Shown: piece after piece, positions 5,865 to 18,212 of the stretch
Layout: the number at the start of each line of letters is the position of its first letter
Position numbering within the stretch: the first letter of the stretch is position 1
Assembly (NCBI GenBank): GCA_965369655.1
Contig: CBDUQR010000016.1
Location: forward strand, 1 to 54,150
Origin: an uncultured bacterium
Lineage (GTDB): Bacteria > Zixibacteria > MSB-5A5 > JAABVY01 > JAHJOQ01
Direction of reading: 5' to 3'
Length of the DNA stretch: 54,150 nt
Translations under genes and position numbers: made by a program
Notes under the pieces: model-generated
Told to the model about the DNA's origin: nothing
Database searches by the model: none
Seen by the model: only the letters and a program-made list of their open reading frames with translations

Positions 5865-6482
5865 GTGTTTGCGGCGTTCATATTGAAGGCGATATTCCTG
5901 TCTTTCTCAGGTGTGATGGCTCCGGGGCCACTCACCGCGGTCACTGTTGCGCATGGCAGTCGATCTCAGCATGCAGGTGTGTGGATCGCGATCGGTCATG
6001 GGATCGTCGAGTTTCCACTGATGGTGGTAGTATTCCTGGGGTTCGAGTATGTTTTTACATCGCCGCATGCGAAAGCCGTGATAGGACTTGTAGGAGGGCT
6101 CTTTCTCTTCTTTCTGGCATACGGCATGTTTCGCAGCATCGCTAAGGCGGATGTCGGAGGCAATGGAGCATTCAGATCACCAGTCGTGGCTGGTGTAGTT
6201 CTCACGATAGCAAATCCGTATTTCCTCATCTGGTGGGCGACTGTCGGGGCGTCACTGATAATCGCAGCGGTCGAATTTGGAGCCATCGGTGTTGTCGTTT
6301 TTGCGATATTCCACTGGCTCTGTGATTTTGTCTGGTGTTACTTCCTGTCGGCGCTTTCATTCAGGGGTGGACGATTCTTCGGCAACAAGTTTCAGAAAAT
6401 TGTATTCGGAGTCTGCGGAGTTTTCCTGATTATCATGGGCGGCAAGTTCGTTGTCGATGCTGTCGGTGTGCTCACCCTGTAG
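5865..6482 (+). CDS. LysE family translocator
   Basis: SGVMAPGPLT, GHGIVE and NPYFLIWWAT motifs; about 6 TM helices. Confidence 0.85.
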   Translation: MFAAFILKAIFLSFSGVMAPGPLTAVTVAHGSRSQHAGVWIAIGHGIVEFPLMVVVFLGFEYVFTSPHAKAVIGLVGGLFLFFLAYGMFRSIAKADVGGNGAFRSPVVAGVVLTIANPYFLIWWATVGASLIIAAVEFGAIGVVVFAIFHWLCDFVWCYFLSALSFRGGRFFGNKFQKIVFGVCGVFLIIMGGKFVVDAVGVLTL

Positions 6483-6577
6483 CATTTCGCCCACGAGTCG
6501 GGACAATGATGCGCGTGGAGACCGGCTCCCATCTTGACAAATCCGCACACATTCATTACACTCGGTTTCGACTGGTA

Positions 6578-6878
6578 TACTGTGGGCGGCAGACATCCTC
6601 GCAAGTCCTGAGCTTCGAAGGGTCTGCCACATCCTGATATTGGTATCGGCAGATGTGGAGAGGTTATCCCAAAAGACGCGAAAGGTGGGTAATCGTGTTT
6701 GCGAAAGAAAGTAGCGTCATTCCCGCGAAGGCGGGAATCTATTGAATGCGTTATCGTTGAATAGACTCCCGTGATATCCTGAGCAAAGCGAAGGGCCTTC
6801 GCGGGAGTGACAGAGTCGGTTTCCCACATGAGCTACTCAGCACTTTTGGGACAGCCTCTGGACATTTGCCCGGCACGG
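6578..6878. repeat. Composite REP-like element (GGCAGAC/GGCAGATG family) interrupted by a micro-insert and a MITE
   Basis: Colinear with the reverse complement of 11030-11105 once 6601-6621 and 6660-6862 are removed. Confidence 0.8.
6660..6858. mobile_element. MITE, 199 bp, 16-bp terminal inverted repeats, 4-bp target duplication TGGA
   Basis: Left GAGGTTATCCCAAAAG, right CTTTTGGGACAGCCTC (2 mismatches); TGGA at 6656-6659 and 6859-6862; internal GTCATTCCCGCGAAGGCGGGAATC palindromic repeat. Confidence 0.8.
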
Positions 6879-6904
6879 AAATCCCTAATTATGGAGGCGG
6901 AATA

Positions 6905-8437
6905 ATGCAGATAGATAATCTCGACAAGATTCTCAAAGAACTCGGAATCGAGAAGACGAATCTCGGCACGTCCGATGGTTCGGGCTGGTTTGCCAACGGC
7001 GCAGAGACACAGAGCATATCGCCGATCAATGGTCAGGTGATTGCAAAAGTCAAACAGGCGAACGCTGACGACTACAACAAGATCGTCGAGTCTGCGCAGA
7101 AGGCGTTCGCAATCTGGCGCGAAGTGCCTGCTCCCAAGCGCGGAGAAATCGTTCGGCAGCTCGGCGTCGCGCTGCGTGAGAAAAAAGACGCTCTCGGGTC
7201 GCTCGTGACAGCAGAGATGGGCAAGTCGATACAGGAGGGCAAAGGCGAAGTCCAGGAGATGATCGACATCTGCGATTATGCCTGTGGCCAGTCGCGGATG
7301 CTCTACGGCGTCCAGACCCACAGCGAGCGCGCATATCACCGGATGTACGAGCAGTGGCATCCGCTCGGAGTGGTCGGCATCATCAGCGCATTCAATTTTC
7401 CCGTCGCTGTCTGGGCATGGAATCTCGCAATCGCGCTTGTCTGCGGCGATGTCTGCGTGTGGAAACCGGCGTCACCGACACCGTTGACTGCGATTGCCTG
7501 TCAGAAAATCTGGGAGAAGGTCGCGAAGGCTAATAATCTTCCTGCCGGAATCTCATCGTTGTTCATCGGTAAAGGTTCGGAAGTCGGCGAGCTTCTCCTG
7601 AATGACAACAGGGTGCCACTTGTCAGCTACACCGGTTCGACGCGCATCGGTCGACGTATCGCCGAGGTTGTCGCCAAACGATTCGGCAGGACAATTCTCG
7701 AACTCGGCGGCAACAACGCGCTGATCGTCACACCTGCTGCTGATCTCGAACTTGCGTGCAAAGCAGTTCTATTCGGCGCTGTTGGAACTACAGGCCAGCG
7801 ATGCACGACGACGCGCCGTGTGATAGTCGAAGCGTCGATCTATGATAAGCTCGTCTCGACTCTTGAGCGCTACTACGGCAAGCTGACATACGGCAATCCC
7901 TTCGACGAGTCGAATCTCGTGGGGCCGATGGTCAACACGGGAGCCGTCGACGTGTATCTCGAAGCGATTGAGATCGTCAAGAAGCAGGGTGGAAAAATTC
8001 TCTGGGGTGGCGAGAAGATCGACAACGAGGGCGGATGCTATGCGAAGGCAACCGTAGCTGAAGTCACTAATGATCTGGAGATCGTGCAGGATGAGACATT
8101 CGCGCCGCTGTTGTATCTTATCAAGTATGAAGGCGATGTGAAGAATGCAATCGCAATTCAGAACGATGTCCCGCAGGGATTGAGTTCGTCGATCTTCACG
8201 AATGACATGATCGAATCGGAGAAATTCCTGTCGTGCGCAGGTTCGGACTGCGGCATTGCGAATGTCAACGTCGGAACATCCGGCGCGGAGATCGGGCTTG
8301 CGTTTGGTGGCGAGAAAGAGACCGGCGGCGGACGTGAATCGGGCAGTGACGCCTGGAAAGTCTACATGCGTCGCCAGTCGAACACGATCAACTGGTCCGG
8401 CGGTATGGAACTGGCGCAGGGGATAGAATTCGATTGA
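6905..8437 (+). CDS. Aldehyde dehydrogenase, ALDH7 / piperideine-6-carboxylate dehydrogenase-like
   Basis: PAPKRGEIVRQ, ISAFNFPVAVW, LELGGNNA, GQRCTT (catalytic Cys), FGGEKETGGGRESGSDAWK; ATG 6905 after GGAGG preferred to the ORF-track start 6866. Confidence 0.9.
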   Translation: MQIDNLDKILKELGIEKTNLGTSDGSGWFANGAETQSISPINGQVIAKVKQANADDYNKIVESAQKAFAIWREVPAPKRGEIVRQLGVALREKKDALGSLVTAEMGKSIQEGKGEVQEMIDICDYACGQSRMLYGVQTHSERAYHRMYEQWHPLGVVGIISAFNFPVAVWAWNLAIALVCGDVCVWKPASPTPLTAIACQKIWEKVAKANNLPAGISSLFIGKGSEVGELLLNDNRVPLVSYTGSTRIGRRIAEVVAKRFGRTILELGGNNALIVTPAADLELACKAVLFGAVGTTGQRCTTTRRVIVEASIYDKLVSTLERYYGKLTYGNPFDESNLVGPMVNTGAVDVYLEAIEIVKKQGGKILWGGEKIDNEGGCYAKATVAEVTNDLEIVQDETFAPLLYLIKYEGDVKNAIAIQNDVPQGLSSSIFTNDMIESEKFLSCAGSDCGIANVNVGTSGAEIGLAFGGEKETGGGRESGSDAWKVYMRRQSNTINWSGGMELAQGIEFD

Positions 8438-8665: not shown

Positions 8666-8854
8666 ACTTCTGGCCAAGACTGAAGCCCGCCTGCAATTAT
8701 TGCATGTGGGCTTTGTGTTTGTATATCGCGCTCACAATTGTCTATCTTCTCTTATCCCTGCTTGACAAATCAGATCAGTATTTAGTAATTGCCTGCCTGA
8801 TTGCATAGCCTCAGCAACGACACCTGACAAGGCCTTATGCGGCGGGAGAATGTC

Positions 8855-10306
8855 ATGCGACCTGTTCTGAAGTTTCTCACTGATGAATTGATAGAGAAGA
8901 TTAAAGACGAAGCACGTGAACTGATCTGCAAACTCGGCGTCGAGATTCACAACGAGACTGTCGTGTCGATGCTCGCCGATCACGGTGCGAGAGTAGATGC
9001 AGAGAAACAACGCGTTTTCTTCACCGACGACATTATCGACAAATCAATCGGTTCCGCTCCGTCGTCGGTGAAGCTGTATGACGTGTCGGGCGAGCTGGCC
9101 GCAGATCTGTCCGGGTACAACGTGAACTACACACCGGGATCGGCTGCGATCAATATCCTCGATGGCGACAAGATCCGGAAGCCGCTGACGAAGGATTATG
9201 TTGATTACACGAAACTGGTGTGCGGAATGGAGCATATCGCGTTGCAGTCGACAGCGATGATACCGTCGGATGTGCATGAGCTGATCTCTGATTCATACCG
9301 TCTGTATCTGAGCCTCCTGTTCTGTGGCAAGCCAGTTGTGACTGGCACTTTCACGATTGAAGCATTCGAGATTATGAAAGATTTGCAGATTGCTGTGCGT
9401 GGCAGTCGCGAGGAACTTGCGGCGAAGCCATTGACTATGTTTTCATGCTGCCCGACGTCGCCGCTCAAGTGGAGCGAAGTGACATCTCAGAATGTAATCG
9501 ACTGTGCGAAATACTCGATCCCGGTCGAATACATTGCGATGCCGCTGTTGGGTTTCATGGCTCCGGCCACTCTCGTGGGGACGTTGATACAGCACACGGC
9601 GGAGACACTGAGCGGTCTTGCGATCAGCCAGCTTGCGAATCCGGGTACGCCGGTCGTATGGGGTGGATCGCCTGCGATATTCGATATCAGGTATGAGACG
9701 ACGCCGATGGGCGCGGTCGGCACGATGATGATCGACTGTGCTTACAACGAGATCGGCAAACATTTCGGACTGCCGACACAGGCGTATATCGGGCTTTCCG
9801 ATGCTAAGCTGCTCGATGCGCAGGCCGGACTTGAATCATCGATGGGAGCGACGGTAGCTGCTCTGAGTGGAATCAACAGCATCTCAGGACCCGGCATGCT
9901 CGATTTTGAGAGCTGTTTCTCGCTCGAGAAACTTGTGCTCGACAACGAAATCTGCGGCATGACACTTCGTATGATCGCAGGGATCGAGCCGAAGGAGGAC
10001 TTTCCGTCAATCGAAAGATTCGAGGAGTTGCTCAAAGATGGACACCTGTTGATTGCTGATCATACACGCAAGTATCTCCGGGAGGAAATACTATTCCCCG
10101 GGCCGACGATTGATCGCGCGAACAGATCGAGATGGCAGGAAGAGGGAAGCAGAAGACTCGGCGAAAGAGCGCATGGCGAAGTCAGACGAATTGTAGCCTC
10201 GTGGGACGGATACGTTCTCAGCGATGACATACGAACTGAACTAACAAAGCTGATGGAAACTGCGGCACGTCGTCACGGTATGGATAGACTGCCTGATATA
10301 CTATGA
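8855..10306 (+). CDS. Trimethylamine methyltransferase (MttB) superfamily protein, non-pyrrolysine type
   Basis: SPLKW, APATLVGTLIQHTAETLSG, PGTPVVWGG, SDAKLLDAQAGLE, SLEKLVLDNE motifs; no in-frame TAG; ATG 8855 after GGGAG (alternative 8837). Confidence 0.88.
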   Translation: MRPVLKFLTDELIEKIKDEARELICKLGVEIHNETVVSMLADHGARVDAEKQRVFFTDDIIDKSIGSAPSSVKLYDVSGELAADLSGYNVNYTPGSAAINILDGDKIRKPLTKDYVDYTKLVCGMEHIALQSTAMIPSDVHELISDSYRLYLSLLFCGKPVVTGTFTIEAFEIMKDLQIAVRGSREELAAKPLTMFSCCPTSPLKWSEVTSQNVIDCAKYSIPVEYIAMPLLGFMAPATLVGTLIQHTAETLSGLAISQLANPGTPVVWGGSPAIFDIRYETTPMGAVGTMMIDCAYNEIGKHFGLPTQAYIGLSDAKLLDAQAGLESSMGATVAALSGINSISGPGMLDFESCFSLEKLVLDNEICGMTLRMIAGIEPKEDFPSIERFEELLKDGHLLIADHTRKYLREEILFPGPTIDRANRSRWQEEGSRRLGERAHGEVRRIVASWDGYVLSDDIRTELTKLMETAARRHGMDRLPDIL

Positions 10307-11010
10307 GAGAGTTCTTCGGCATCTTAGTAGATCAAATCGTGCCATCGGTGAAAGCGGTGCTGCGAGCGCAGGGTATACCAGACGATGCGGAGCCTGCATC
10401 CAGTGTGATCGAACTTGCGGAAAGAGCTGTCGAAATGTTCAGCAGACTGGCAAGTCCGGTGGGTTTGATGTGTAATCTTGGGATTGACGAGTTCGGAGAG
10501 GTCTATGAAGGAGAAGGGCTGAACGAGGATGTTACCCCACTTGAGGATATTTACAAGCGAGCCGATCATCTCGCACTGTTTGGAGTGACCGTAGGAGAGG
10601 ACATCGGACAGGTGATCTCGTCGCTTTTTGACAAGAACGATTTCGCGCTCGGATCGATGCTCGATTCGGCAGCATCCGAGGGTGCCGAGAATGCCGCGCA
10701 GGAACTCCAACGAATGTATATCCAAAAACAGTCAGGAGAGTTTGGACCATCCGATGGAGCGCTCAGGTTCAGTCCCGGCTACTGCGGCTGGCATATCACT
10801 GCGCAACGGAAGCTGTTCGACATGCTCGACCCTGATGAGACAGTGATTTCGTTGAATGATAGTTGCCTGATGTCGCCTCTGAAGTCGATTTCCGGGGTGC
10901 TAGTGATCGGTCGAAAAGAGATATTCGAATTTGATGATTCGTTTCCATTCTGCTCAGAGTGCGCGCATCGATCATGCAGGGATAGAATAAGTTCAGTGCT
11001 GGAGCAGTGA
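10303..11010 (+). CDS. Stand-alone B12-dependent methionine synthase reactivation (SAM-binding) domain protein
   Basis: FGVTVG, RFSPGYCGW, LNDSCLMSPLKSISG, C-terminal CxxCxxxxC; overlaps the mttB stop codon. Confidence 0.85.
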   Translation: MREFFGILVDQIVPSVKAVLRAQGIPDDAEPASSVIELAERAVEMFSRLASPVGLMCNLGIDEFGEVYEGEGLNEDVTPLEDIYKRADHLALFGVTVGEDIGQVISSLFDKNDFALGSMLDSAASEGAENAAQELQRMYIQKQSGEFGPSDGALRFSPGYCGWHITAQRKLFDMLDPDETVISLNDSCLMSPLKSISGVLVIGRKEIFEFDDSFPFCSECAHRSCRDRISSVLEQ

Positions 11011-11029
11011 TAACAATGTTTGTAAATCT

Positions 11030-11143
11030 CGTGCGCGGCAGATGTCCACATCTGCCGATGACAACGCAAGATGGGGCAGACGAGGACGTCTGCCGCCCAC
11101 AGTACAGTACGAAGATGTCAGGATCGCGGGGATCCTGACCTAC
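11030..11143. repeat. Uninterrupted REP-like cluster (empty-site reference)
   Basis: GGCAGATGTCCACATCTGCC (11037-11056), GGCAGACGAGGACGTCTGCC and GTCAGGATCGCGGGGATCCTGACCTAC (11117-11143). Confidence 0.8.
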
Positions 11144-11170
11144 ATGAGTTGATAGCAGGAGTGTGATAAG

Positions 11171-11809
11171 ATGGAAATCCTCGATAAGCTGTCCGAGAGC
11201 CTTCAGAAAGGCGATGCAAAGGGTGTCGCGCAACTGACCGAATCCGCCATCGGAGAAGGGTTGTCTCCGCAGACTATACTCGACGATGGTCTCATTGCGG
11301 GCATGGCCGTGATCGGCGAGAAATTCAAGAAGCATGAGATATTCCTGCCGGATGTTCTTCTCGCAGCGAAAGCGATGTATGCGGGAATGGATTTGGTCAA
11401 GCCGCTTCTGATCCGAGACGGCATTCCCGCAATCGGAAGAGTTGTGATTGGATCGGTCAAGGGTGATCTCCACGATATCGGAAAGAACCTCGTCGGCATC
11501 ATGCTGAAGGGAGCAGGGTTCGAGGTGATCGATCTCGGCAACGATGTATCTCCAGAGAAGTTCATCGACGCCGCGCTGGAAAACGAAGCGCGGGTCATCG
11601 GGATGTCTGCACTGCTCACGACAACGATGCCGGGCATGAAAAAAGTTATCGATCTGGCGAAGGAACGGAACGTTTTCGACAAGCTGAAATTCGTTGTCGG
11701 CGGAGCGCCGGTCAACGACGATTATGCCAGAGAAATCGATGCTGACGCTTACTGTTTCGATGGAATCAAGGCAGTCGAATGCGTGAAAAGTCTTCTCGGT
11801 GTGAACTGA
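11171..11809 (+). CDS. Corrinoid (cobalamin-binding) protein, MttC/MtbC-like
   Basis: Cap domain IFLPDVLLAAKAM, DLHDIGKNLV B12 motif, MSALLTTTM, VGGAPV. Confidence 0.93.
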   Translation: MEILDKLSESLQKGDAKGVAQLTESAIGEGLSPQTILDDGLIAGMAVIGEKFKKHEIFLPDVLLAAKAMYAGMDLVKPLLIRDGIPAIGRVVIGSVKGDLHDIGKNLVGIMLKGAGFEVIDLGNDVSPEKFIDAALENEARVIGMSALLTTTMPGMKKVIDLAKERNVFDKLKFVVGGAPVNDDYAREIDADAYCFDGIKAVECVKSLLGVN

Positions 11810-11810
11810 C

Positions 11811-12704
11811 ATGGAATCCCTGATCGACAGGATCAAACGCGGAGACCTCTTGGTCGCGGATGGCGCGATGGGGACGATGTTATTTGAATCGGGACTCGAC
11901 CCGGGCGATTGCCCCGAAAAACTTAATGTAAGCAATCCAAAGCTGCTCGAAGATATTGCGCGCAGGTATCTCGATGCGGGCGCGGACATCCTGCAGACTA
12001 ATACCTTCGGTGCATCGCCATTGAAGCTCCAGCAGTATGGACTGGAAGACAAGACGGAAGAGATCAACATCACCGCAGTCGAGGTCGTGCGTTCGATTGC
12101 TGATGACAGGGCGTACGTCTCCGCATCGTGCGGGCCGAGCGGCAGGATTCTCAAGCCGTACGGTGATTGCGAGCCGGATGAATTGACCGAGAGTTTCGAA
12201 CGGCAGATTGCTGCGTTGGTGTCGGCGAGAATCGATATGCTTTGTATCGAGACAATGACCGATCTGAACGAAGCGACGATTGCGATCAAAGCTGCGCGTA
12301 AAGTCGATCCTGAGTTGACTGTGGCTGCGACAATGACTTTCGATTCGACTCCGCGAGGATTCTACACGATCATGGGAGTATCGATAGCTGATGCTGCCGC
12401 CGGTCTTGCAGAGGCAGGCGCGGATATCATCGGGTCGAACTGTGGCAACGGCGTCAGGAACATGGTAGAGATCGCGAAGGAGTTTCGTAAGTCAACGCAG
12501 ATGCCATTACTGATACAATCGAATGCCGGACTTCCCGAGATGATCGATGGCAAGCTGGCGTACAAAGAAACGCCTGAGTTCATGGCTGATGCCGCTGTGG
12601 AATTGTTCGAGCTTGGAGTCTCAATCGTCGGCGGATGCTGCGGAACGACACCTGAGCACATCGCAGCGATCAGAAAAGCGCTCGATTCGTACCAGCATAC
12701 TTAG
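11811..12704 (+). CDS. Homocysteine S-methyltransferase domain protein (MetH N-terminal / BHMT fold)
   Basis: DGAMGT, TNTFG, IETM, GSNC, SNAGLP, GGCCGT Zn ligands; 1 nt after the corrinoid gene. Confidence 0.92.
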   Translation: MESLIDRIKRGDLLVADGAMGTMLFESGLDPGDCPEKLNVSNPKLLEDIARRYLDAGADILQTNTFGASPLKLQQYGLEDKTEEINITAVEVVRSIADDRAYVSASCGPSGRILKPYGDCEPDELTESFERQIAALVSARIDMLCIETMTDLNEATIAIKAARKVDPELTVAATMTFDSTPRGFYTIMGVSIADAAAGLAEAGADIIGSNCGNGVRNMVEIAKEFRKSTQMPLLIQSNAGLPEMIDGKLAYKETPEFMADAAVELFELGVSIVGGCCGTTPEHIAAIRKALDSYQHT

Positions 12705-12933: not shown

Positions 12934-12961
12934 TTGACAGTTTGTCAGCCGAACTTATAAT
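12934..12961 (+). promoter_or_regulatory. Sigma70-type promoter of tRNA-Thr
   Basis: TTGACA-N16-TATAAT. Confidence 0.75.
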
Positions 12962-12979: not shown

Positions 12980-13052
12980 GCCGGCGTAACTCAGCTGGTA
13001 GAGTAGCTGATTTGTAATCAGCCAGTCGGGGGTTCGAGTCCCTTCGCCGGCT
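12980..13052 (+). tRNA. tRNA-Thr(TGT), CCA not encoded
   Basis: Acceptor GCCGGCG/CGCCGGC, anticodon arm GCTGA-TTTGTAA-TCAGC, T-loop GGTTCGAGTCC. Confidence 0.95.
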
Positions 13053-14082
13053 CTTGATCTTGTGTTTCCGCTCTCAAGTCTTTTATCAGCTTGTCGAAAG
13101 CTTTCTTGTATGATTTGGAATTTGTCCAGTCTTGGAAGTCGATGATTGTCAATTCCTTGACATCAGCAGCATACTTGTTCTTCCATTCCTCCGAATGAAC
13201 ATATTCATCGATGGTAATCGGAATCAAGACCTCAATGTCCAATCCTTGTTTCTTGAGGCTATCAGTCTTGCGCAAGGCACGATTGACTTCGCGCATTACT
13301 GGTCGTGACTCAAGAGAATTCTTGCTGCATACAAGGATCACTCTGTCTTTGTCTTTAATCTCATTATTGATGAACGCCCAGAGATCACCACTGGAATCTT
13401 CTTTGTATCTACAGCACTGGACATTTTCTTGAGTCAGATTACCGTAAAGCTTTGAGACAAACTCGTCATCTTTGTCAGAATACGAAATGAAGCATGTATG
13501 ATAATTGAAGTTCACCAGAAAACGTCCCAGATGTTCAATAAGGGAATTGGGATAACCGCATGCCCGCAAGAACGATGCGGGAAGTCCACCGCTCTTGAGC
13601 ATGGTGCGAATGTCAATGACATTTGGATACTTGTGTTGACATTTATCGAGTCCTACACAGTCATTTATTGCTGAGTCGATGATGACCGTCTCTCCCAGTT
13701 TGCTGAACGACAAGTCCGCTTGGCTGAGACATGAATGTCGAAAGGTGCATTTATACAGGTCTGTCCCCTGCAGGTTAGCGCGCAGCAGGTTTGATCTCTC
13801 AAAATGCGCACGCATCAGATTGGAACCGTACATATTGGTATCTATGAGCTTGGAGCCGCTAAAGTCAGCACCATCGAGGTTTAAATGAATGAGTTCTACT
13901 CCGGAGAGGTCAACCTTTGTCAGGTTAGCATTAGGTAGTTGGAAGCGATTCCGTGGTGGTTTGAAATCGGTCAGGTTAATAAGGGCACTTGACATCCCCA
14001 TAAGTACTGGATTCTCCTTCCTCCACTTATTCCATTCCTTCACACCCTGCTCAAGTATCTCCGAATACTTCGGCTTCGCCAT
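13018..14082 (-). CDS. Pentapeptide-repeat + C-terminal TIR domain protein
   Basis: WNKWRKENP start, A(N/D)L pentapeptide repeats, CFISYSDKD TIR box 1, SKNSLESRPVMREV with the conserved Glu, LIPITID, IIDFQDW. Confidence 0.88.
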   Translation of the reverse strand: MAKPKYSEILEQGVKEWNKWRKENPVLMGMSSALINLTDFKPPRNRFQLPNANLTKVDLSGVELIHLNLDGADFSGSKLIDTNMYGSNLMRAHFERSNLLRANLQGTDLYKCTFRHSCLSQADLSFSKLGETVIIDSAINDCVGLDKCQHKYPNVIDIRTMLKSGGLPASFLRACGYPNSLIEHLGRFLVNFNYHTCFISYSDKDDEFVSKLYGNLTQENVQCCRYKEDSSGDLWAFINNEIKDKDRVILVCSKNSLESRPVMREVNRALRKTDSLKKQGLDIEVLIPITIDEYVHSEEWKNKYAADVKELTIIDFQDWTNSKSYKKAFDKLIKDLRAETQDQEPAKGLEPPTG

Positions 14083-14367: not shown

Positions 14368-16503
14368 ATGTCTTCGTCGAGTCTAATACCACGATCCTCA
14401 TCCCCAAAAACATCGCCACGACTATCTGACAATCAATTGATTCTGCGCCAGTTCCGGGCATTATGCGCCCTGATTTTGATCGCGGGTCTCATGTCGGCGT
14501 CTGTTCATGCGGAGCTTGTATCGTCATCTGAGGCAGAGTTGGTCGGGCAGAATTGGATTACAAGCATTACCGACCTGAACGGTGACTGGGCAGGAGATGT
14601 TGCTCCCAAAGTCGCCAGTTCTGACGACATCTATCTCGGCGACACGCTGATCGCGCGAGTATATGCAGTTACGCCGTCCGGATATATCCTGGTTCCGGTG
14701 CTCAGGGAGCTTCCGCCGGTTGTTGCGTATTCCGAAGAATCGAGTTTCGATATCAATGCCGAGGATGGCTTCTGCGCTATGGTGAGCGAAGTGTTGACCC
14801 ACAGAGTCCGGCTGTTCGTTCAGGCGTATGGTAGTCTGGATCAGCGACAGGAGGACTTCGATCTGAAGCTTTTCGGTTCCAGCAATCAGAACGAATGGAA
14901 CCGTCTCGCTGTGTCGCCGGAGGAATTCTCTCAACTCCGTGGCGGAGCATCAGCGCAGACTGTCGGTCCTCTCCTGACCACGAGTTGGCATCAGGGATAT
15001 CCGTATAATCTTCTCTGTCCGATGGGAGATGGCGGGCGATGCGTTGTAGGCTGTGTTGCAACCGCCACAGCGCAGATTTTGGCGTATTGGAATTGGCCCA
15101 CTGCCGGATCGGGAAGTTCAAGTTATTACTGGTATGGCGATAATTCATGCGGAGGAAGCACACCGGGTCAAACTCTCAATGCCGACTATTCAGATTCGTA
15201 TGACTGGAATAATATCGTCAACAGTTGCAGCGGCGGATGCACTCAGGCGGAGATCAATGCGCTCTCGGAACTCTGCTACGAGGTAGGCGTTGCGTTCGAG
15301 ATGGATTATGGAAAGTGTGGTTCCGGCGCATACACGTCGTACGCTCAGACGGTGTTCCCGACCTATTTCAGGTACGACCAATCGATAACCCGTCAGGATA
15401 GAGACAATCACTCTCCCGAATCCTGGTTCGTGCTGGTCCAGGAGGAGATCAATGCAGATCGTCCTATGCAATACAGAATCAGCAGGCACTCGATCGTTTG
15501 TGATGGCTGGCAGATGGTCGGTGAAACGAAGCAGTACCACTTCAATTACGGCTGGGCCGACAGTCACAACGCCTGGTATACTCTCGATGAGCTTTTCTGC
15601 AACTGGGAAGGTTGTACGCCGATGGTGGAGTACATGATCAAGGACATCCAGCCCGAAGCGGACACCGACAATGACGGGTTTGTCAATTCGCTCGACAATT
15701 GTCCCGTGACATATAATCCCGATCAGGCCGATGTTGACGACGATGGCGTCGGAGATGTCTGTGACAACTGCGTGACAGAGCCGAATCCTCTCCAGGGCGA
15801 TGCCGATGATGACGGAATTGGCGATGCGTGCGATTCTGATGCTGACAATGATGGTCTCCTCAATGAGAACGACAACTGCTGGCTGGTTGTGAACCTGCTT
15901 CAGGAGGATGGCGACGGTGACGAAGTCGGCGACTCATGCGACAATTGTCTTGAAGTGCAGAATCCGTATCAATATGACGAGAACGGCGATGGTGTAGGAG
16001 ATGCCTGTGACGGCGAGTTGCATATCCAGGCGTACGATGTGCCTGACGCTTATCTTGATCAGCCGTATTTCTATCAGTTCTGGGCTGTCGGTGGGATCGA
16101 ACCTTACTTCTGGACGAAGCTCATTGGTCAGCCTCCATACGGCTGTACTTTCCACGGTGGGGAAGTCGGGACGATTGAGGGCACGCCATCATGGGAAGCG
16201 CAGTACTTCATGGCAATTGAAGTCATGGATTCGGACAACCCCCCGAGCTACGATATCATGAATGTGATTATCGACGCTATCCCGGGACAGCAGTATACTT
16301 GCGGCGATGTAAATGAGAGTGGCGATGTAGACATTGATGATGCTGTTTTTCTTGTCACCTACATCTTTGCAGGTGGCCCCGCACCTGACCCGATGGCTGC
16401 CGGTGACGTGAACTGTAGTGACAATATCGACATAGATGATATCGTGTACCTGATCAATTACATCTTCGCCGGCGGTCCCGAGCCATGCGCCGCGTGTCCC
16501 TGA
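14368..16503 (+). CDS. Secreted C10 (streptopain-like) cysteine peptidase with prodomain, thrombospondin type 3 repeats, Ig-like domain and C-terminal dockerin-like domain
   Basis: [19 protein letters not shown] (catalytic Cys), HSIVCDG, YHFNYGW; DNCP..NPDQADxDxDGxGDxCD repeats; twin Ca-loop tail; true start may be downstream (TTG near 14437). Confidence 0.88.
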
Positions 16504-16544
16504 TGTTGTGACAAATTCGATTGGGTTCAGCGTCACTATCCTGA

Positions 16545-18212
16545 GTGATCATTTCCTTTGGCCGAAGGCAGGATAACTTGCCGAGTCACGCAACAAGAAC
16601 GATAACTAAGCTGGTTGTTCTGATTGTGGCTCTTTGCGCAACGGCATCCGACTCGCTTGCTCAGGTAAGTACTACCGGCCCCGAACCTCCTCCCGGCATC
16701 GATCGCGGAATCAGGACAGCGACTCGTTCCCAGACGATTATCTTCGGCGTTCCTCCGTATGAGTGGCATCACGGTTGCGGTCCGACTGCCGTCGGCATGG
16801 TTGTGGGATTCTGGGATGGCAACGGTTATCCTGATCTCGTAGAGGGTGATGCTGCAGACCAGACTCCGGCTGTGAATGCCATGATGGCAAGCGACAACAA
16901 CTATGCAGCCTGCGGACAATCGTGGCAGGATCACTATCAGGACTATTCGTGTCCCCGCGACGGCTCTGGACCAATACAGGCAGATCTGTCGGAACTGGGT
17001 GGCGCACATGAGAGTGAATGCGTGGCCGATTTTATGCATACGTCGTGGAGCGTCTACGGACTTGCTTACGGCTGGAGTTATTTCTTCGACGATAATCTGG
17101 CGTTCATAGAATACGTGTCATTGAAGGAGCCGAGCGCGGACCCCGTAGCAGCGACCTATTACTTCGATGATTTCAGTTGGGAACAATACAAGAACGAAAT
17201 CGACAATCGAAGGCCGATGGTCCTGCTGGTCGACACTGACGCTGATGGTAACACGGATCATTTTGTGACCGGGATAGGCTATGACGAATCGGAATACGAA
17301 TACGGCATATTCGACACTTGGAACAGGAGCGTGCACTGGTTCAGATGGCGCAAGATAGCTCCCGGTTCATCGTGGGGCATCTACGGGCTGACGACATTCG
17401 GACTCGACGTTATCTGCGTCGACAGCGACGGCGATGGTCTCGGTGATCCGGGTCATCCGGAGAACACATGCCCTGACGATAATTGCCCGTACATCTCCAA
17501 CCCGCAGCAGGAGGATACCGACGGTGACGGACTCGGTGACGTTTGCGATCCTGATATCGACGACGACGGAATCCTGAACGAATCAGACAACTGCGTCTAT
17601 TCCGGCAATCCGGATCAGGAGGATAGCGATGGCGATGTTGTCGGTGATTCATGCGACAACTGTCTCGATGTTCACAACCCGGAGCAGTACGATGAGAATG
17701 GCGATGGCATAGGCGACGCCTGTGACGGTGAATTGCATATCCAGGCGTACGAAGTTCCAGACGGATACGTTGGCATTTCGTATTACTACAAATTCACTGC
17801 TGTGGGAGGAACAGAGCCATACTACTGGGACAAGACAATTGGCCAGCCTCCGTCCGGATGTGTTTTCACCGGTGACACTATGGGCACTATCAGCGGAACT
17901 CCGAACTGGGCGGCGACATACTTCATGAAAATCCTCCTTGTCGACTCTGATGTTCCGCCGAAGCAGGATACGCTCGGAGTGTTTATAACAATCGATTACG
18001 GGGAAGCACTGTGCGGTGATGTCAACGGGTCGTTCGCAGTAGACATTGACGATGTTGTTTACATCGTCAACTACATCTTCTCAGGCGGACCGCCTCCAAA
18101 TCCAATGGAATCGGGAGATGTTGATTGCAGCGGCAATGTCGATATAGATGATGTAGTGTACTTGATCAATTACATTTTCACGGGCGGCCCCGAGCCGTGC
18201 GCAGCGTGCTGA
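16545..18212 (+). CDS. Secreted papain-fold (C39/C10-like) cysteine peptidase with TSP3 repeats, Ig-like domain and dockerin-like domain
   Basis: [35 protein letters not shown]-terminal half paralogous to the upstream gene; start uncertain (possibly TTG 16578). Confidence 0.78.

Follow-up and report, generated by a model that had tools for sequence, protein, structure and literature searches.

A four-gene MttB-type operon in a Zixibacteria genome as a candidate methyl-THF-independent methionine synthase

Background

How does a bacterium methylate homocysteine (Hcy) when family searches of its genome find neither of the methionine synthases MetH and MetE and no methylenetetrahydrofolate reductase (MTHFR)? 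The question is raised by a locus at positions 8855-12704 on the plus strand of contig CBDUQR010000016.1, from a marine-sediment Zixibacteria genome (GenBank assembly GCA_965369655.1), of which a stretch of 54,150 nucleotides, here called the window, was analysed. Four adjacent and co-oriented open reading frames (ORFs) lie there, encoding an MttB-like methyltransferase, a MetH-type activation protein (Act), a corrinoid protein (Cor) and an Hcy methyltransferase. We think it probable that they constitute a single operon by which homocysteine receives a methyl group from a non-folate methylated compound, yielding methionine without methyltetrahydrofolate (methyl-THF). The evidence that carries this reading is the gene content of the host genome, the phyletic pattern of MTHFR, and the conservation, motifs and folds of the four proteins.

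A cluster of this kind has already been published. In the available part of their paper, Williams et al. 2022 (PMC9324843) describe the same cluster in metagenome-assembled genomes (MAGs) of Ca. Electryoneota, note its occurrence in diverse bacteria and hypothesize that it makes methionine in a novel, corrinoid-dependent way from an unknown methyl donor. The initial annotation of the window, made from the sequence by itself, had suggested that the four-gene layout may be new; in view of that paper the suggestion has to be withdrawn, and the operon adds one more example to a cluster type that appeared in print as a hypothesis in 2022. What is added here is its status as the sole methionine synthase found in its genome, the phyletic pattern of MTHFR, the missing Hcy biosynthesis and the replacement of the residues that form the betaine pocket in a related enzyme.

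Results and Discussion

Gene order and junctions

The locus is made up as follows, with the evidence in brackets:

8855..10306, plus strand: non-pyrrolysine MttB-superfamily methyltransferase, presumed methyl-donor:corrinoid methyltransferase (PF06253, fold)
10303..11010, plus strand: stand-alone MetH activation (reactivation) protein of the TM0269 type with a C-terminal CxxCx4C (PF02965, 1j6r)
11011..11170, no strand: intergenic gap with three REP-like hairpins, outside the enzyme system (sequence, blastn-short)
11171..11809, plus strand: corrinoid (cobalamin-binding) carrier with cap and Rossmann domains (PF02607, PF02310)
11811..12704, plus strand: homocysteine S-methyltransferase, the Hcy barrel of MetH as a separate protein (PF02574)

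The ORFs and their Pfam matches bear out the four consecutive genes that the initial annotation had named, MttB, reactivation, corrinoid and Hcy methyltransferase. It had also described two of the junctions as translationally coupled, and this holds because the first two genes share an ATGA overlap at 10303-10306 and the last two are joined as TGAcATG at 11807-11813, with 1 nt between stop and start, while Act and Cor are separated by 160 nt. That gap contains three GC-rich hairpins of a dispersed REP-like repeat, which has 79 further blastn-short matches elsewhere in the genome, and in the closest relative (L007) the gap measures 24 nt. The REP-like insertion within the operon leaves every gene intact. 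The MttB-like ORF is 483 amino acids (aa) long from ATG 8855 and 489 aa from an alternative in-frame ATG at 8837; the start at 8855 chosen earlier is plausible since GGGAGA ends 5 nt upstream of it, and ATG 8837 is open as well. Residue numbers of the MttB-like protein count from ATG 8837 (minus 6 for the 8855 start).

Methionine metabolism of the host genome

The host genome is a draft of 2.99 Mb in 100 contigs, 99.54% complete with 0.08% contamination, and its methionine genes were sought by family searches. The operon supplies the single PF02574 gene and the single Met_synt_B12 gene of the genome, and the second of the two B12-binding genes encodes the small subunit of methylmalonyl-CoA mutase. 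The initial annotation had pointed to a pterin-binding MetH module, metF and RamA as genes whose presence would bear on its proposal. The sole Pterin_bind (PF00809) gene proved to be FolP (TIGR01496, 325 bits), and the searches of the host genome returned no MTHFR, no RamA (PF14574) and no DUF1638 (PF07796), outcomes that favour that proposal. Neither did they return Meth_synt_2 (PF01717), the family of MetE and core-MetE, with a model that in control genomes also detects archaeal core-MetE. MetH as one enzyme (TIGR02082) is thus missing, there being no pterin module besides FolP and no MTHFR, and the operon would be the only methionine-forming or Hcy-methylating enzyme found in this genome, as judged by family content.

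MetK (563 bits) and AhcY (636 bits) are encoded by adjacent genes, both above their NCBIfam cut-offs. Among enzymes of homocysteine formation, the family searches found no MetX, MetA or HcyBio, and PF01053 gave partial matches only, none above 39.9 bits; de novo synthesis of homocysteine appears to be lacking. Because no genes of Hcy biosynthesis were found and MetK and AhcY are present, the likely role of the operon is the remethylation of homocysteine derived from S-adenosylhomocysteine (SAH). In this genome the operon most likely closes the activated-methyl cycle, in which methionine would pass through S-adenosylmethionine (SAM), SAH and homocysteine back to methionine at the expense of an external, non-folate methyl source.

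Distribution of the operon, MetH, MetE and MTHFR

The relevant genes were counted in two sets of genomes, without statistics, as related genomes are not independent. The first set comprises 121 Zixibacteria genomes at least 90% complete, the host genome included, with membership of the MttB clade set at 65% identity or more. The clade occurs in 40 of them, MTHFR in 68, full MetH in 30 and MetE-type genes in 41. Nearly every MTHFR-positive genome (67/68) carries MetH or MetE, and MTHFR is present in 67 of the 70 genomes that have MetH or MetE. Eighteen of the 40 operon genomes also have one of these two synthases, 15 of the 18 together with MTHFR, and all MTHFR-bearing operon genomes (15/15) have MetH or MetE; the other 22 have neither, and MTHFR is found in none of these (0/22). 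The 81 Zixibacteria without the MttB clade divide into 52 with MetH or MetE and 29 with none of the three systems.

The second set crosses phyla and holds 50 of the 58 operon-bearing genomes in which the four-gene locus appeared uncut, eight with short contigs having been dropped. MTHFR occurs in 31 of these, pterin frames of MetH size in 26 and genes of the MetE type in nine, and 16 of the 50, two closed chromosomes among them, lack MetH, MetE and MTHFR alike. MTHFR follows MetH and MetE, not the operon, and because it does so the operon would not use methyl-THF; on this point we regard the pattern as the strongest evidence that we have.

Two further observations concern the same genes. Many Zixibacteria without the operon (for example G053:C1:31549-35230; families f5-f8 and f10) possess two adjacent genes of about 330 aa that resemble core-MetE, and this pair adjoins a 610-660-aa fusion of a homocysteine S-methyltransferase with MTHFR (YitJ-like). 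A pterin-domain fragment in the closest relative, G001, was considered and rejected, as it is the 5' end of folP beside ftsH, cut by the contig end.

Conservation across related loci

Related loci were taken as the best 80 of 413 stretches with an MttB-like relative (one genome per species), and their gene order was read by tblastn with the four window proteins. All four genes stand in the same order in 61 of the 80 loci, which puts the arrangement beyond chance. Of the remaining 19, eight break off at a contig end ahead of the last gene and 11 show another or an incomplete arrangement (MttB alone, MttB-Cor, MttB-Act-Cor without the Hcy gene, MttB-Act-Hcy without Cor, or a decayed Act). By record title the loci fall into about ten phylum-level groups, namely Zixibacteria, Ignavibacteria/Bacteroidota, Acidobacteriota, Gemmatimonadota, Planctomycetota/Phycisphaerae, Cloacimonadota, Neomarinimicrobiota, Caldithrix, Ca. 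Deferrimicrobium and Ca. Hatepunaea. Across them the identity of the components is highest for MttB (62-86%) and lowest for Act (35-75%). Within the Zixibacteria, 36 of the 40 genomes with the MttB clade have the Hcy gene on the same strand of the same contig, 2-3 kb downstream, and in the other four an orthologue of the Hcy methyltransferase lies on another contig. Four further Zixibacteria genomes carry a distant MttB (45-50% identity) beside an Hcy methyltransferase in reverse gene order.

When 745 crude ORFs from the 80 loci were clustered, only the four operon genes recurred, and the flanks were found to hold peptidases, a CBS-pair protein (4 loci), a Fer4 protein resembling reductive dehalogenase (3 loci) and unrelated genes. 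A 4Fe-4S dicluster protein of 442-489 aa with a weak reductive-dehalogenase match is encoded directly 5' of mttB on the same strand at L012 4582-5910 and in the same place in L017 and L031 (3/80 loci); it is conceivable that this protein is an electron donor. The CBS-pair protein, about 140 aa long, adjoins the operon in L053 (5010-5435), L062, L070 and L084 (4/80 loci). CBS pairs often bind adenosyl ligands, and the protein could be a SAM-sensing regulator.

The MttB-like protein and Act

The first protein of the operon matches MTTB (PF06253) with 231.7 bits against a cut-off of 25, over profile positions 29-493 of 500, and its score of 336 bits on TIGR02369, under the cut-off of 525, places it outside the trimethylamine methyltransferase MttB proper; none of the four operon proteins (0/4) reaches an NCBIfam equivalog cut-off. 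It had been annotated as a non-pyrrolysine MttB, and rightly: the ORF has no in-frame TAG or other stop, and a HMMER alignment to the solved structure sets Leu320 against the pyrrolysine (Pyl) residue Pyl334 of Methanosarcina barkeri MttB, a position held by Leu in 72 and by Met in 4 of 76 clade members. The best sequence matches in the PDB are Desulfitobacterium hafniense MtgB (9yce/2qne, 189 bits) and M. barkeri MttB (7xcl, 170 bits). The AlphaFold (AF2) model, built on 102 sequences, has a pLDDT of 97.1, and in Foldseek (E 4e-42) it aligns with TM values of 0.93/0.91 to 7xcl and 0.93/0.95 to 9yce, at 27% identity to MttB and MtgB alike. The near full-length PF06253 match and the MttB/MtgB TIM-barrel fold place the protein within the MttB superfamily; the weak fold matches of the model include dihydropteroate synthases (E ~1e-4).

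Two minor results concern this gene family. A zinc site in the pocket was considered from the clade-specific C223, C301 and C373 but finds no support, as these residues lie inside helices according to the DSSP string of the model, read without coordinates. A scan of the window and six related loci at Rfam gathering thresholds found no riboswitch or leader RNA near the operon, only two tRNAs and PYLIS_3. The PYLIS_3 matches lie inside non-pyrrolysine mttB-like genes (L012 6963-7060, L031 6958-7057, L048 6961-7060), at codons after the Pyl-equivalent Leu, and score 39-40 bits against a gathering threshold of 38; they are probably coding-sequence homology and no recoding signal.

Act has a partial match to Met_synt_B12 (PF02965) of 36.2 bits against a cut-off of 25, covering residues 85-201. 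Its best PDB sequence match is Thermotoga maritima TM0269 (1j6r, E 1.2e-5), in which RISPGY aligns to the RFSPGY at residues 155-160 of Act. The AF2 model (pLDDT 92.9) has 1j6r_A as its first Foldseek match (E 8.4e-13, TMt 0.79), and MetH activation domains make up all of the next 14 matches listed (to E 3.2e-5), those of Escherichia coli, human and Thermus among them. Family match, fold and the RxxxGY motif, presumably the AdoMet motif, agree in making Act a MetH activation domain, and SAM binding and a role in reactivation are predicted for it. Beyond the region aligned to TM0269 lies a C-terminal CxxCx4C (residues 217-225, within the stretch 217-235 encoded at window positions 10951-11010), found in 120 of the 120 Act homologues listed, in which SPGYCGW occurs in 118 and the Arg of the motif in 98; the search returned only the same clade among those 120 matches. 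C161, C217, C220 and C225 are invariant in 41 sequences, and the cluster may be a metal site (Zn or Fe-S) relevant to the arrival of the reactivating electron.

The corrinoid protein and the Hcy methyltransferase

Cor matches B12-binding_2 (PF02607, 82.7 bits) and B12-binding (PF02310, 99.5 bits), and D99-x-H101-x-x-G104, S146-x-L148 and G177-G178 are invariant in 40 sequences, so that the cap and Rossmann domains with the DxHxxG, SxL and GG cobalamin signature place it in the fold class of corrinoid proteins. Its best NCBIfam matches are MtgC/MtbC-type corrinoid proteins; because it falls short of TIGR02370 (194.7 vs 215.3) and of the named equivalogs MtgC, MtbC and MtaC, it belongs to that fold class and to no named subfamily. 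The Hcy methyltransferase matches PF02574 with 239.9 bits against a cut-off of 22 over all profile positions (1-283 of 283). With this full-length match and C211, C276 and C277, invariant in 36 sequences, which we take to be the zinc ligands of the MetH/BHMT-type homocysteine module, it is a homocysteine S-methyltransferase; it stays under the NCBIfam cut-offs, PRK07534 and PRK09485 included.

A complex prediction for Cor with the Hcy methyltransferase scored 0.61 against 0.05 for the best of three controls. Of solved complexes 58 of 80 attained this mark, as did 2 of 110 mismatched pairs, counts that apply only roughly here because the prediction was run with our own alignments. At least 65% of contacts agree between the runs, the partner pLDDT is at least 89, and the predicted interface uses the cap helix of Cor (residues 54-64). 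The pass may reflect likeness, since structures of full-length MetH containing both modules have been solved (e.g. 8ssc).

The proposed methyl relay

The catalytic steps and the direction of methyl flow that we infer would run as follows. The MttB-like TIM-barrel enzyme would methylate the Co(I) form of the corrinoid protein, and the zinc-type homocysteine S-methyltransferase would take the methyl group from methyl-Co(III) to form methionine. Cofactor oxidised to Co(II) would be restored by the TM0269-like Act through reductive methylation with SAM. The initial annotation had already drawn a self-contained relay running from donor to homocysteine by way of the corrinoid, reactivated in the SAM-dependent manner of MetH and lacking a pterin module, and the evidence now lending it support is comparative.

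Methyl donor and alternative explanations

The relay may hold with an acidic quaternary amine as its donor, be it glycine betaine or carnitine, proline betaine, gamma-butyrobetaine or phosphocholine, which would make the MttB-like protein an MtgB-type enzyme. The six MttB-superfamily members with known substrates besides Pyl-MttB all use quaternary amines with an acidic group, according to the available text of PMC12155760; MtgB is the best PDB sequence match here, the best NCBIfam matches of Cor are MtgC models, though under their cut-offs, and the sharing of a carrier among MtgB, MtgC and MtgE has been shown genetically in Ruegeria (PMC12478193, available part). The pocket argues otherwise. 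D. hafniense MtgB binds glycine betaine through Y97, F356, R312 and H348, and R312 is kept in MtcB, MtpB, MthB and MtyB, as described in the accessible portion of Picking et al. 2026 (PMC13080624, whose residue numbers are the 9yce chain index + 2). In a pairwise HMMER alignment, which is not a structural superposition, Y97/R312/H348/F356 correspond to S102/Q315/S350/E358 here, so that 0/4 of the betaine residues are kept and the one that would bind an acidic group is replaced. These replacements are near-invariant in the clade, with S102 in 73 of the 74 members that have a residue there, Q315 in 76/76 and S350 in 71/76, and with D356, F357 and E358 each in 76/76; the S/[Q or H]/Y/S signature reaches relatives at ~35-64% identity (101 representative sequences). 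Of the active-site residues of M. barkeri MttB (PMC9842639), G110-T111, M249 and Y364 align to S102-A103, M235 and S350, and the protein is equally far from MtgB and MttB. Betaine transporters of the BCCT family occur in 2 of the 121 Zixibacteria genomes and in none of the 40 operon genomes, those of the OpuAC family in 21 of 121, eight of them among the 40 and one among the 22 operon-only genomes, and family searches for these two found neither in the host genome. The exchange of MtgB's betaine residues and the general scarcity of betaine transporters make glycine betaine, like its acidic quaternary-amine relatives, an unlikely donor, contrary to the initial annotation's mention of betaine, and we consider the explanation as a whole improbable. 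Our guess is that the donor is a small or non-acidic methylammonium compound.

The Hcy methyltransferase could instead work alone in the manner of MmuM or BHMT, with S-methylmethionine, SAM or betaine, and MttB, Act and Cor could feed another acceptor such as HgcA, to which transfer from MttB in Zixibacteria has been proposed from docking alone in the available text of PMC12484752. PF02574 does include cobalamin-independent enzymes, with the matches to PRK07534 and PRK09485 under their cut-offs, and the Hcy gene is at times found apart from the others (below). We hold this to be quite improbable: Cor and the Hcy gene lie 1 nt apart, they are adjacent in the 61 complete loci and in 36 of the 40 Zixibacteria genomes, a MetH-type activation protein is sensible only for a MetH-like cycle, and the complex prediction favours the pair, with the reservation already made about likeness to solved MetH. 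The barrel might, on the other hand, have taken over the pterin job of MetH and bind methyl-THF or a methyl-pterin, leaving an ordinary split MetH. Both MttB and MetH's folate domain are TIM barrels and activate a methyl donor on behalf of a corrinoid (PMC9842639), dihydropteroate synthases are among the weak fold matches, and 26 of the 50 operon genomes across phyla have MTHFR and MetH. No MTHFR is found, however, in the host genome, in the 22 operon-only Zixibacteria or in 16 of the 50 genomes across phyla, and with no MTHFR no methyl-THF is made; nor do the available texts on the superfamily (PMC13080624, PMC9842639, PMC12155760) contain a pterin-binding member. We rate this last explanation as very improbable.

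Several observations weigh against the relay from a non-folate donor that we favour. Full MetH is present in 10 of the 40 Zixibacteria operon genomes and in 26 of the 50 across phyla, and for that reason the operon is not a general replacement of MetH. Orphan orthologues of the Hcy methyltransferase (54-64% identity) occur without MttB, Act or Cor nearby in four genomes (G064, G096, G101, G104), and in G088 the Hcy gene lies on a different contig from MttB-Act-Cor, so the Hcy enzyme may use other partners or act alone. A variant trio at L095 (G151:C37, 1092-5061, minus strand) joins an orthologue of the Hcy methyltransferase (58% identity) to an 855-aa Methyltransf_23 protein and a 150-aa protein with B12-binding only, lacking the cap domain, with a transposase fragment alongside. 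The predicted interface of Cor and the Hcy methyltransferase need not be the catalytic pose. The apparent absences rest on family searches of a 100-contig draft, and a non-canonical MTHFR or an unrecognised Hcy pathway in the genome, such as the O-phosphohomoserine route (PMC13759103), is possible. In the flanking ORFs of the 80 loci no linked transporter, regulator or catabolic gene hinting at the donor recurs, and our search of the literature found no biochemical, genetic or expression work on this cluster type. The datasets listed as containing the locus are DNA, namely marine-sediment metagenomes from a single study, with no RNA set among them.

The relay as stated above can be drawn more sharply, and the sharper version is doubtful when all its parts are taken jointly. 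In it, the Pyl-free MttB-clade enzyme would demethylate a non-acidic methylammonium compound (protonated tri- or dimethylamine, or a choline-type cation) with the clade-invariant S102/Q315/S350/D356/E358 pocket; the operon would represent a distinct, MTHFR-independent class of methionine synthase; the module would suffice to close the methyl cycle in bacteria of sediments and soils, from about ten phyla, that form no methyl-THF and no homocysteine; and a metal or Fe-S centre at C161/C217/C220/C225 of Act could take the reactivating electron directly from ferredoxin.

Relation to known systems

The cluster of Williams et al. is matched here in full, all four components being present and adjacent, and the two are alike in having no pyrrolysine and in the hypothesis of methionine synthesis drawn from them. 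The locus L075 from Ca. Hatepunaea meridiana, one of the organisms in that study, is homologous, with an MttB 68% identical; it has 1.5 kb with two ORFs of no Pfam family between Cor and the Hcy gene, where the window has its REP-like repeat between Act and Cor. The MAGs of that study carry full MetH, according to the available part of PMC9324843, and the L075 genome has a 1246-aa MetH frame and MTHFR, whereas the host genome here lacks MetH, MetE and MTHFR.

The nearest system with genetic evidence is MtgBCDE of Ruegeria pomeroyi and Phaeobacter inhibens. As far as the available text of Mausz et al. 2025 (PMC12478193) goes, genetic experiments connect MtgB, MtgC, MtgD and MtgE in Ruegeria, methionine synthesis is tied to the demethylation of methylated amines and cannot do without the pterin protein MtgD, and activation is assigned to RamA and DUF1638. 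The likeness lies in an MttB-family enzyme, separate corrinoid and Hcy proteins and one shared cobalamin carrier. That system, however, needs MtgD, RamA and DUF1638, none of which was found here (no non-FolP pterin module, PF14574 or PF07796), where a MetH-type activation protein is present instead, and the mtg genes of Ruegeria are scattered, with MtgB assigned to glycine betaine, whereas a single operon is found here; the present system is thus not of the MtgBCDE type.

With MetH (TIGR02082) the operon shares three of four modules, the Hcy barrel, the B12 cap and Rossmann domains and the activation domain, but as separate proteins, and an MttB-family barrel stands in place of the absent pterin module. 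T. maritima, with a short MetH (TM0268) and TM0269 (1j6r), likewise has a stand-alone activation protein, which differs from Act by the C-terminal CxxCx4C extension of the latter. MtgB/MtgC/MtgA of D. hafniense and MttB/MttC of Methanosarcina resemble the operon in superfamily fold (TM ~0.93) and type of corrinoid partner; their acceptor enzymes are MtgA, for tetrahydrofolate, and MtbA, for coenzyme M, whereas here a homocysteine methyltransferase takes that place, Pyl and the betaine residues are missing and a MetH-type protein replaces activation of the RamA type. The core methionine synthases MesA-MesD work independently of folate, with corrinoid proteins as the presumed source of the methyl group for some of them (Price et al. 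2021, PMC7857596, available part); MesA-MesD are MetE-type zinc barrels (PF01717) without homology to the operon. MttB has no occurrence (0) in the main text of PMC7857596 and is not mentioned in PMC13759103.

If the relay is true, many uncultured bacteria, among them Zixibacteria, Ignavibacteria, Acidobacteriota, Gemmatimonadota, Planctomycetota and Cloacimonadota, would rebuild methionine and SAM with a methyl group taken from an environmental compound and none carried by folate. Genome-based calls of a missing methionine synthase would change, a new demand for cobalamin would arise in sediments and soils, and methylated amines would have a new sink. The branch of the superfamily to which the MttB-like enzyme belongs is large and uncharacterised; the enzyme's pocket matches none of the six known substrate types, and identifying its donor would extend MttB-family chemistry. 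The window offers a clean test case: a single operon without a competing methionine synthase or MTHFR, in a genome that shows no sign of homocysteine synthesis.

Neighbouring genes

Just 5' of the operon, at 5865-8437 on the plus strand, a LysE-type exporter is followed by an aldehyde dehydrogenase that scores above the NCBIfam cut-off for L-piperidine-6-carboxylate dehydrogenase (758.7 vs 730); the pair is not kept beside the operon in related loci. On the other side lies a tRNA-Thr(TGT) at 12980-13053, with a perfect TTGACA-16-TATAAT promoter match ahead of it at 12934-12961. A minus-strand ORF at 13018-14082, whose stop end overlaps the tRNA by ~36 nt, adjoins the operon and encodes N-terminal pentapeptide repeats and a C-terminal TIR domain (TIR_2, 64 bits); the protein may be of a defence or NADase type. 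Further along, at 14368-18212 on the plus strand, two secreted-looking proteins have thrombospondin type-3 repeats and C-terminal dockerins, one with a Peptidase_C10 domain and the other with a Peptidase_C39-like domain.

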